DNA of 33,714 bases from a bacterium (GTDB lineage Bacteria > Bacteroidota > Ignavibacteria > UBA10030): assembly GCA_043803945.1 (NCBI GenBank), contig JAZDJN010000030.1, positions 1 through 33,714 of the forward strand, in the 5' to 3' direction. Each line of letters opens with the position of its first letter. Within the stretch, counting starts at the first letter, position 1. Positions 24,627 through 26,517 of this stretch are shown piece by piece. The position numbers were made by a program, and so were the translations under genes. The notes beneath the pieces were generated by a model. The model did no database searches, was not told the DNA's origin, and saw only the letters and a list, made by a program, of their open reading frames with translations.

Positions 24627-25922
24627 ATGTCTATGATCATCACTGATGTTGTGGCTCGCGAGATTCTCGATTCACGCGGAAATCCGACAATCGAGGTCGA
24701 GGTTGAGCTGGAAGATGGAACCATTGGCCGTGCCGCAATCCCAAGCGGTGCATCCACTGGTGAGAACGAAGCTGTAGAATTGCGTGATGGTGACAAATCA
24801 CGCTATCAGGGAAAAGGTGTTTTGAAGGCGGTTGAAAACGTCAACACGATCCTCTCCGAAGAAGTCGTCGGATTCGATGCGTTCGATCAGGTCGGCATTG
24901 ATGAGATGATGATCGCACTCGACGGAACGCCGAACAAGGGAAAACTCGGTGCCAATGCCATACTTGGCGTCTCTCTCGGTGTGGCGAAAGCGGCTGCCCA
25001 ATCGCTGGGAATGCCTCTCTACCGCTACATTGGCGGGACAAATGCGAAAGTCCTTCCCGCGCCGATGATGAATATCATCAATGGCGGTTCGCATGCCGAT
25101 AATAATGTCGACTTCCAGGAGTTCATGGTCTTTCCGCTTGGTGCCCCGACATTTGCCGAAGCGCTGCGGATGGGAGTAGAGGTGTTCCATTCTCTGAAGT
25201 CCGTCCTGAAAAAGAAGGGATACAACACTGCCGTTGGTGACGAAGGAGGCTTTGCGCCGAATCTCAAATCGAATGTCGAAGCGATAGAGTGCATCCTGGA
25301 AGCCATTCAGAAAGCAAATTATAAAGCCGGCGAGGAAGTCTTCATTTGCCTCGATCCCGCTGCGAGCGAATTTTTCGATGTCGAGAAGAAACGGTATGTG
25401 TTCAGCAAGTCTGATAAATCGGAAAAGACTCCTGAAGAGATGGTAGCGTATTGGGAGAACTGGGTGAAGCAGTACCCCATCATTTCGATCGAAGATGGGA
25501 TGGCCGAACAGGATTGGGATGGATGGAAACTGATTACCGACACCCTCGGGAAGAAAATTCAATTGGTCGGTGACGACCTCTTCGTTACGAATGTCGAGTA
25601 TCTTTCAAAGGGGATAGACCTCGGTGTCGCGAATTCCATTCTGATTAAAGTAAACCAGATCGGCACCTTGACCGAGACGCTCGATGCAGTAGAGATGGCG
25701 AAACGGGCACACTACACTGCTGTCCTCAGCCATCGATCCGGTGAAACAGAAGATGCAACGATTGCCGATATTGCCGTGGCTACCAATTGCGGAATGATTA
25801 AAACCGGATCGGCGAGCCGGACCGACCGGATTGCAAAGTACAACCAACTGCTTCGAATCGAAGAAGAGCTGGATACAAATGCAATCTATGCCGGACGCGA
25901 TGCGGTGAATGCGAAGTTTTAA
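24627..25922 (+). CDS. eno: Enolase
   Basis: [55 protein letters not shown]. Confidence 0.99.
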
Positions 25923-26517
25923 TCCACGGAGAAACACGAAGAGCATTTAAAAAGAAGGAATCCACGAAGAGACACGAAGAGCACGAAGTATACGAAGAGC
26001 ACAAAGCGGTAAGGGAGGTGTGAACATAAGATGCCGGAAGGCGAGAAGGAGCTTCTTTATCGAGAAGAGGTTTTTAAAATAGTTGGTGCGGCCATCGAGG
26101 TTCATAAGACATTAGGCGCAGGATTTCTTGAGGCAATATATCAGGAAGCTCTGGAAATCGAATTGCGCCTACAAGGCATTCCATTTGAATCACAGAAACC
26201 GTTGCCGATACAATATAAAAATTATACTCTCGCTAAGGAATATATCGCGGATATGATTTGTATGGATAAGATTATTCTCGAATTGAAGGCGCTGAATGAA
26301 CTCACCAGCAGAGAAGAAGCACAACTTCTGAATTATCTTAAAGCAACGGGACTTCGAGTAGGATTACTCATCAATTTCGGGAAAATTGGTAAACTGGAAT
26401 GGAAGCGATTTATTAAATGATGTCTATGAATAATTGTAAACCCCACAAACCTATCTACAATACATACAAGGTATCAATTGTTTATCGAGTGTGTATTCGT
26501 GTGACTTCATGGATTAA
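25919..26517. mobile_element. Inverted-repeat-bounded cassette carrying the GxxExxY gene (copy B)
   Basis: Left TAATCCACGGAGAAACACGAA (25920-25940), then further CACGAAGAG units to about 26006; right TTCGTGTGACTTCATGGATTA (26496-26516); 17/21 IR; TTAA at both ends. Confidence 0.65.
26031..26420 (+). CDS. GxxExxY protein (PD-(D/E)xK nuclease-like, PDDEXK_3)
   Basis: 129 aa; VHKTLGAGFLEAIYQEAL; AD...IILELKA (D...ExK); AQLLNYLKATGLRVGLLINFG. Confidence 0.95.
   Translation: MPEGEKELLYREEVFKIVGAAIEVHKTLGAGFLEAIYQEALEIELRLQGIPFESQKPLPIQYKNYTLAKEYIADMICMDKIILELKALNELTSREEAQLLNYLKATGLRVGLLINFGKIGKLEWKRFIK

Follow-up and report, generated by a model that had tools for sequence, protein, structure and literature searches.

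A GxxExxY nuclease cassette inserted between eno and a phosphohexomutase gene is a typical member of a widespread family of word-built hairpins

Between eno and a phosphoglucomutase/phosphomannomutase-family gene of an Ignavibacteria bacterium (GTDB lineage UBA10030) lies a small gene of the GxxExxY family bounded by inverted repeats, raising the question of how the gene came to be there and what connects it with the repeats around it. The stretch of DNA analysed here, hereafter the window, covers positions 1 to 33,714 of contig JAZDJN010000030.1 (assembly GCA_043803945.1), and makes up the entire contig C30 in an assembly of 5.54 Mb and 118 contigs; all features described in it lie on the + strand. 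An original prediction, made from the letters of the window alone, had proposed an inserted element with GxxExxY as its mobiliser or target nuclease, analogous to RAYT/REPIN but with a different enzyme. We find that a ~600-bp cassette (25919-26517) is inserted into an originally short eno–mutase spacer, that this cassette is a typical member of a very widespread family of gene-bearing and gene-less hairpins, and that within genomes the class of short repeated words beside GxxExxY genes is linked to gene-less arrays of that class. Our preferred reading, tentative and a little short of an even chance, is a REPIN/RAYT-like partnership with a different enzyme, in which the inserted word-array cassette encodes a nuclease partner of the gene-less hairpins.

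The proposal that the cassette is an inserted element is borne out by a short ancestral spacer, and by the gene's absence from this position in most relatives. Of 41 related genomes, 36 yielded a mutase ortholog (E of 1e-80 or better); among the 29 relative loci fetched, eno directly precedes the mutase gene in 24, and 11 of these have a spacer of 40 nt or less. Of 80 metagenome loci containing a mutase relative (best mutase identity 83%), 72 show the same order, with spacers of at most 60 nt in 30, 61–150 nt in 17, 151–400 nt in one, and more than 400 nt in 24. The GxxExxY gene is missing from this junction in most relatives examined, and a maximum-likelihood tree built from 93 mutase proteins does not unite the three entries with a junction GxxExxY gene in one clade and requires three changes, at least two of which are forced by well-supported branches. 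A gene kept here by all relatives and inherited vertically is therefore not what is seen, the junction copies being scattered on the mutase tree. The nearest relatives of the protein itself (72%, 69%, and 68% identical) belong to Chloroflexota and Latescibacterota, and not to the family relative with a GxxExxY gene before the mutase gene (L023, genome G023), whose protein is 65% identical to that of the window and whose upstream neighbour is not eno. At L023 a tandem duplication upstream of the intact gene repeats the 5' region of the cassette, from the left arm through the Shine-Dalgarno sequence to the first ~15 codons. A metagenome contig (L157) holds a GxxExxY remnant in its 478-nt spacer, comprising the C-terminal half only and 59% identical to the protein of the window; a ATCCACGAAT-type right arm adjoins the mutase start there, and the left half is exchanged for unrelated sequence. 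These comparisons are all with genomes of other species (nearest mutase 83%), with an exact empty site expected to read TTTTAAGGAG and an exact 24-mer from the eno 3' end giving no match among the metagenome contigs.

Different cassettes have repeatedly occupied this spacer, with a gene-less CACAGAT hairpin in genome G008 (L016), a gene of the four-helix-bundle family inside GACCTCTGA-type (GACCTCTGATCTCTG-type) arms in the 519-nt spacer of G022 (L020), and more word hairpins at L025, L026, L038, L165, L205, L211, and L213. The four-helix-bundle frame at L020 is suspected by eye, from the untranslated sequence, to be broken. Spacers of 820–1100 nt at L026, L030, L161, L168, L173, L180, L195, L224, and L230 hold a ~270-aa secreted-protein/lipoprotein-like gene; the spacer is variable for reasons besides hairpin cassettes.

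The predicted layout of the cassette, a GxxExxY gene with a bounding inverted repeat between eno and the mutase gene, was recovered from open reading frames (ORFs), profiles, and repeat searches. The upstream host gene eno (enolase, 24627-25922; ORF list, Pfam Enolase_C 3e-131, Enolase_N 1.6e-61) ends in a TAA stop codon (25920-25922) that falls within the outer left arm (25919-25940), whose words CACGGAG (25925-25931) and CACGAAG (25935-25941) follow a 10-nt period. With 26496-26517 this arm forms a terminal inverted repeat of 22 nt, 82% complementary by repeat search and made of CACGAAG-type words. The second left arm of the original prediction was likewise recovered, together with further words (25959-26006), from direct and inverted repeat families and CACGAAGAG matches: positions 25959-25978 pair with 26496-26515 at 85%, the two left arms constitute a 25-nt direct repeat with 92% identity (second copy 25959-25983), and five words from the second arm on start at 25963, 25973, 25982, 25991, and 26000 (periods of 10, 9, 9, and 9 nt), with ACGAAG units continuing at a 9-nt period as far as 26006. 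CACGAAGAG occurs three times in the window compared with 0.27 expected, and 0 of 100 shuffles reached three. A Shine-Dalgarno-like GGGAGG (26013-26018, read from the sequence) lies 12 nt 5' of the ATG of the intact, 129-aa GxxExxY gene (26031-26420; ORF list, PF13366 and TIGR04256 profiles), which is followed by the right arm (26487-26517; inverted-repeat search) with its reverse-complement words GAGTGTG (26487-26493), ATTCGTG (26495-26501), and CTTCATG (26505-26511), terminating in GGATTAA. The last 2 nt of this arm are shared with the AAGGAG ribosome-binding site (26516-26521, read from the sequence) of the downstream host gene, the mutase gene (26527-27924; Pfam PGM_PMM domains I–IV). The G+C content of the cassette is 36–43%, compared with 47–55% in the flanking genes.

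The sequence TTAA is present at both outer ends as first noted, overlapping the eno stop codon (25919-25922) and AAGGAG (26514-26517), however it is not readable as a target-site duplication, because it is a palindrome and supplies the outermost 4 nt of the inverted repeat. Flanking direct repeats of k = 2, 3, 4, and 5 nt were found in 3, 1, 1, and 1 of 58 loci respectively, against means of 4.0, 1.1, 0.3, and 0.1 for shuffled pairings, and TTAA was rejected as a target duplication, the 58 related cassettes being no better than shuffled pairs.

The same architecture extends far beyond the window. A search of species-representative genomes with the protein of the window gave 259 confirmed relatives, and the best 80 of these (55–72% identity), whose loci were analysed, come from at least a dozen phyla by record naming, plus the archaeal genus Methanocorpusculum. 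When the upstream flank was aligned locally with the reverse-complemented downstream flank, an inverted repeat scoring at or above the threshold of 24 emerged in 66 of the 76 cross-phylum loci with enough flank, compared with 2 of 137 controls in which one flank was shifted by 600 nt, and 66 loci scored above all 60 of their own shuffles. GxxExxY flanks are thus strongly enriched for word-built inverted arms, as the original prediction had anticipated. Typical cassettes end in ATCCACGAAG...CTTCGTGGAT or AACCGCGAAT...ATTCGCGGTT, with a median element length of 532 bp (range 418–817). The Methanocorpusculum relatives (L094 and L101, 59–60% identical) are bounded by inverted duplications of ~130–140 nt that start with AATCCGCGAAT words and are far longer than the bacterial arms. 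The genome of the window itself contains 12 GxxExxY matches, of which 9 are full-length, 2 are partial, and 1 is a fragment containing a stop codon; all 12 have short tandem words upstream and their reverse complement downstream, the words varying by copy (CACGGAG, CGCAAAG, CGCCAAG, CACGAAG, CACAGAT, ACAGGAT, and others). Full-text literature searches on the GxxExxY and four-helix-bundle protein families and on 23S rRNA intervening sequences (supplementary files not covered) returned no description of such a cassette, and the family is apparently undescribed; PF13366 is given as ‘Unknown’ in a passage of PMC3424549, and the passage of PMC8934634 that names the GxxExxY domain mentions it only in passing.

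Gene-bearing cassettes are greatly outnumbered by hairpins of the same design with no gene inside. An unbiased scan for 6-mers repeated at a 7–12 nt period and followed within 1.2 kb by their reverse complement, likewise repeated, found 30 clusters in the genome of the window and 1 in its shuffled counterpart. A census of word arrays followed within 1.3 kb by the reverse-complement array gave 34 pairs for CACGAAG, 24 for CACAGAG, 22 for CACAGAT, and 17 for CACGGAG, with 1 each in the shuffled genome, and 15 pairs for CGCCAAG with none in the shuffled genome. The loops of 28 of the 34 CACGAAG pairs measure 26–67 nt and contain no gene, and only the cassette of the window, counted twice through its two left arms, encloses a GxxExxY match. 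Per genome, the family comprises a few cassettes with a gene and a large number of word hairpins without one. Many of the gene-less copies are near-identical mosaics with common extra modules and several lie at contig ends, with several of the cassettes and hairpins examined in this genome falling within a few hundred bases of a contig end. In the mosaic repeats at C1:10140, C28:2135, C42:15976, C57:8872, C57:11550, and C87:327937, a CACGAAG/CACTAAG hairpin is combined with a small TTGGACGAAAAGTCCAA stem-loop and a TCAGCCAGAGGCTGA module, and at C36:1-700 and C19:1-620 complete gene-less hairpins, in tandem and of the matching word class, come after GxxExxY genes that lie near contig ends.

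Two gene-less features occur in the window. A hairpin of the CACGAAG/CACTAAG word class (GCCACAAAGACACGAAGGCAC ... GTGCCTTAGTGACTTAGTGGC; 24459-24541, census match C30:24461) stands just upstream of eno, which therefore has family elements on both sides. Further downstream, nested hairpins (30449-30686, census match C30:30452) consist of a CGCCAAG-word hairpin (arms 30449-30469 and 30670-30686) whose loop contains a CACAGAG-word hairpin (30525-30633), and directly precede the ribosome-binding site of the next gene.

If the RAYT/REPIN analogy holds, gene-less arrays should track the word class of the resident gene. Across the 41 related genomes, which hold 0–13 GxxExxY matches each (34 have some and 7 none), CAC-word arrays number 1709 against 138 for a reversed control pattern, and their count rises with gene count (Spearman 0.66, compared with 0.47 for the control pattern), with a median of 3 arrays in genomes without a GxxExxY gene and 26.5 in the others. 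The flanks of 84 GxxExxY genes from these relatives were used to assign the word classes found beside genes, and four classes were counted genome-wide with the arrays inside fetched gene loci subtracted. The median number of gene-less arrays was 24 where CACRGAG was present beside a gene (n = 9) and 1 where it was absent (n = 32), 51 (n = 3) and 0 (n = 38) for CACKAAG, 16 (n = 9) and 1 (n = 32) for CGCHAAG, and 27 (n = 19) and 12.5 (n = 22) for CRCNGAT. Within genomes, the difference between classes beside genes and absent classes is positive in 19 of 23 informative cases (Wilcoxon p 0.0008). G032 illustrates the association: its single gene lies between arrays of the CACAGAG type, to which almost all of its 56 listed arrays also belong.

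What is conserved in the arms is the words and not the base pairs that they could form. In 58 loci with 2588 paired columns, mismatches compatible with G-U pairing numbered 85 and A-C mismatches 70 (binomial p 0.26), alongside 180 other mismatches; were the stem kept in the sense transcript, the G-U type should far exceed the A-C type. With word positions defined solely from the internal periodicity of the left arm, the two arms match in 598 of 629 word columns (95.1%), compared with 430 of 565 spacer columns (76.1%; Fisher p 5e-22). Of 38 loci, 28 have a best word period of 10 nt and 8 one of 9 nt. Cross-arm mismatches at word positions 1 to 7 (135 words) number 0, 6, 1, 31, 2, 3, and 6, with position 4 accounting for 31 of the 49, mostly as G <-> T exchanges. 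The conserved object is therefore a C-R-C-N-A-A-K motif placed about once per DNA turn, and not a run of base pairs. These alignments fit recognition of the words on DNA, by one face of a duplex or of a folded-back stem, and argue against selection for an RNA helix, though the stem may still form.

The protein encoded by the cassette belongs to the GxxExxY/PDDEXK_3 family by its profile scores and motif residues, matching TIGR04256 (GxxExxY) with 149.9 bits (cut-off 35, E 3.6e-44) and, as its sole Pfam match, PF13366 (PDDEXK_3) with 147.9 bits (cut-off 22, E 2e-43). Across 45 aligned sequences (42–72% identical) the invariant residues are G31, E34, Y37, D74, E84, K86, Q98, Y102, N115, F116, and R126, and the D...ELK motif read from the sequence at the outset is found as D74 and E84-L85-K86. 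D...ExK together with Q-x-x-x-Y is the signature of the RecB family. An AlphaFold2 model (pLDDT 93.9, pTM 0.87) searched against the PDB with Foldseek gave Cas4 SSO0001 (4ic1) as the best match (E 1.1e-4, TM score 0.60 normalised on the query), with further matches to the restriction-endonuclease-like 3ijm, Hjc resolvase, lambda exonuclease, RecE, AddAB, and MGME1; Cas4 is thus best by Foldseek, yet Hjc and other PD-(D/E)xK folds are close behind. A sequence-profile search of the PDB found no match at E up to 1, and a homodimer prediction, with a score of 0.01, weighs neither way. The cassette accordingly encodes a minimal PD-(D/E)xK nuclease by family assignment, with a predicted fold closest to Cas4/RecB-type nucleases.

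In the partnership that we prefer, the words would be DNA-level recognition sites for the nuclease of their own cassette, which would be expressed from its own Shine-Dalgarno sequence on eno read-through transcripts and would act in trans on gene-less hairpins of its word class, following a REPIN/RAYT-like logic. The hairpins might multiply, as a guess, through nicking or breakage at a hairpin and subsequent templated copying. The analogy drawn originally with RAYT/REPIN stands as far as gene-less copies of the same class (~28) and their tracking of word class (19 of 23 genomes) are concerned, and falters on the four-helix-bundle cassettes and on three array-rich relatives without a cognate gene. 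Those relatives (G002, G015, and G020) hold 38–49 CACKAAG arrays with no cognate GxxExxY gene found in assemblies of 100–430 contigs, and G034 has 29 CAC-word arrays and no GxxExxY match.

Several further points count against the partnership. The 41 genomes are kin, and the word-class p-values consequently overstate the significance, and gene-less hairpins derived from gene-bearing cassettes would produce the association as well. The paralogs in the genome of the window are only 41–49% identical to its protein, indicating no recent spread of the gene itself there, and the arms of the cassette in the window are only 82–85% complementary. Most importantly, the design is not bound to the nuclease. 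Nine matches to TIGR02436, the four-helix-bundle family, occur at 8 loci of the same genome, and 6 of these 8 loci have upstream word arrays with downstream reverse complements (scores 25–39), so that non-nuclease genes sit in the same cassette design and a nuclease is not needed for it. This is the main reason why the mobiliser reading is not rated higher. The four-helix-bundle words (GTGAGAA, GGTTTCA/GGTTTAA, GACAGAT, GAAAATG, and GGTAAGA) are mostly unlike those of the GxxExxY cassettes, and the family occurs in 39 of the 41 related genomes. At C87:62447-62922, a four-helix-bundle gene in GGTAAGAG-word arms matches in two pieces (62680-62832 and 62513-62695) and is probably frameshifted.

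A bolder form of the partnership, possible but doubtful, would see GxxExxY and word hairpins as a new class of selfish repeat in bacteria and some archaea, in which a minimal Cas4/RecB-like nuclease reads arrays of 7-nt words and drives the copying of gene-less hairpins of its own class with neither transposase nor target-site duplication, the four-helix-bundle cassettes forming a parallel branch with words of their own.

Of the explanations that do without such a partnership, the one that survives best, unlikely as we consider it, is a cassette acting at the RNA level in the manner of 23S rRNA intervening sequences (IVSs), with the arms pairing in the eno–mutase transcript, RNase III cutting the stem, the insert being looped out or released, the host operon tolerating it, and the words having no protein partner. 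The design is that of the Coxiella burnetii 23S rRNA IVS with S23p, an ORF enclosed by a stem that RNase III cuts according to a passage of PMC4990558, and genes of the S23p-like four-helix-bundle family lie in cassettes of the same kind in the genome of the window. The cassette is in the sense orientation at 34 of the 44 loci whose flanking long ORFs are co-directional, the remaining 18 of 62 classifiable loci lying between convergent or divergent genes, and at 41 of 58 loci the left terminus has the end of an upstream sense ORF within reach, at a median gap of 1 nt. This tight fit would need no target specificity if only harmless insertions survive, namely those landing after a stop codon and before the next ribosome-binding site. 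Folding of the RNA from 25912 to 26524 closes the outer arms (-153.7 compared with -130.4 kcal/mol, z -6.9, 20 shuffles), and a scan of the cassette found no promoter-like or terminator-like site above shuffle level. An Rfam search of 25800-26650 at E up to 10 gave only a chance snoRNA match of 18 bits. In one metatranscriptome run, which contained 0.10 of the sampled words, short contigs were recovered within 25742-25974 and none over the cassette gene, two of them exact (25845-25923 and 25894-25974) and running through the eno stop codon into the left arm; such contigs are silent on processing or excision, as they cannot show RNA ends or levels. Against an RNA-level cassette stand the lack of a G-U excess on the sense strand, the gathering of mismatches in spacers and at the fourth letter of the words, a pattern incompatible with a stem, and tandem words at a ~10-nt period, which a stem does not require. 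Moreover, 10 of the 44 co-directional loci are antisense, none of the 80 cross-phylum loci has an rRNA match, and both the many gene-less hairpins and their word-class link to resident genes would go unexplained.

It is quite improbable that the gene is a passenger, with a host factor or another enzyme moving or maintaining the repeat family to which the arms belong and GxxExxY, like the four-helix-bundle genes, being cargo (e.g. for defence or addiction). Two unrelated small protein families with a common cassette design, several genomes rich in arrays without a cognate GxxExxY gene, and the commonness of decayed copies, many GxxExxY matches in relatives being fragments or containing stop codons, are all consistent with cargo. 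However, no family of the PADLOC defence models matched the protein and PHROGs gave only one weak match (E 0.005), the catalytic residues are invariant in 45 sequences spanning 42–72% identity, the four-helix-bundle cassettes of this genome mostly use words other than those of the GxxExxY cassettes, and gene-less arrays track the word class beside resident GxxExxY genes.

Homing into hairpins, by which a homing-type GxxExxY nuclease gene would cut the empty loops of independent REP-like word hairpins and be copied in by repair with the arms as homology, might account for the constant orientation, relative to the purine-rich word strand, of a gene lying between arms (12 of 12 loci in this genome, by eye), for the gene-less hairpins of the same word classes, for the hairpin within a hairpin loop at 30449-30686, and for the absence of target-site duplication, but is very doubtful, since each word class of this genome has, from a reading of the flanks, one or two gene-bearing copies, which with paralogs this divergent leaves no sign of recent gene spread among the ~28 CACGAAG hairpins, since arms of 20–30 nt are short for homologous repair, and since non-nuclease four-helix-bundle genes occupy loops likewise.

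The partnership that we prefer bears on two large, many-copy families of unknown function, GxxExxY (34 of 41 related genomes) and the four-helix-bundle family (39 of 41), which are here tied to a defined DNA architecture, and this architecture poses a direct question, namely whether the protein reads its own words. Should the nuclease indeed move or maintain the hairpins, they would constitute a second REPIN/RAYT-like system with a different enzyme fold and a far wider horizontal spread, and would also explain a common class of intergenic repeat that breaks metagenome assemblies. What is new is that words are conserved in preference to base pairs, that target-site duplication is absent, that the predicted fold is Cas4/RecB-like, that different cassettes have repeatedly settled in the same operon spacer, and that gene-less arrays and resident genes are associated by word class across genomes.

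Among known systems, Cas4/RecB nucleases resemble the GxxExxY proteins in structure, SSO0001 being the best structural match, and in the invariant D, ExK, and Q-x-x-x-Y residues. The protein of the window is however shorter, with 129 aa compared with ~200, its sequence identity to Cas4 is 16–17%, and no CRISPR context is seen among the ORFs listed around the GxxExxY gene. Cas4 binds an iron-sulfur cluster through cysteines. Correia/NEMIS, ERIC, and similar miniature inverted-repeat elements are short and intergenic, have terminal inverted repeats, occur in many copies, and are often co-transcribed with their neighbours. The gene-less hairpins share their size, position, copy number, and terminal inverted repeats, but differ from them and from classical insertion sequences in lacking a target-site duplication (58 loci), and have tandem-word arms and a matching gene-bearing form that encodes a nuclease instead of a transposase.

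The 23S rRNA IVSs are similar to the cassette of the window in having a small ORF between terminal inverted repeats able to form a stem, in a transcribed region, and an S23p-like family is found in the same cassette design in this genome. In contrast to these IVSs, which interrupt rRNA helices, the cassette lies between protein genes (with 0 of 80 loci in an rRNA gene, and no 23S rRNA gene found in the assembly of the window), its ORF encodes a nuclease, its word arms bear no sign of selection for RNA pairing, and gene-less copies are many. The link to the IVSs is thus one of shape, not of place.

The closest likeness is to REPIN/RAYT systems, for which the comparison draws on parts of PMC3116915, PMC3337134, and bioRxiv 10.1101/2022.05.22.493013. 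In both, one or two copies of an enzyme gene belong to each repeat class and lie between inverted short repeats, the same repeat is dispersed as gene-less hairpin doublets (here 28 hairpins of the CACGAAG class), and repeat classes vary between genomes and go with the resident gene. Unlike RAYTs, the GxxExxY enzyme is a PD-(D/E)xK nuclease and not a Y1/HUH transposase, its arms are arrays of 7-nt words with a ~10-nt period instead of one REP palindrome, and several paralogous pairs of gene and word coexist in one genome (12 matches). Inheritance of REPIN-RAYT systems is for the most part vertical according to an abstract from this set, whereas the GxxExxY relatives (best 80 of 259, 55–72% identical) are spread over many phyla and one archaeal genus, with the junction copies not forming one clade. 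The link to REPIN/RAYT is therefore one of logic, not of membership.

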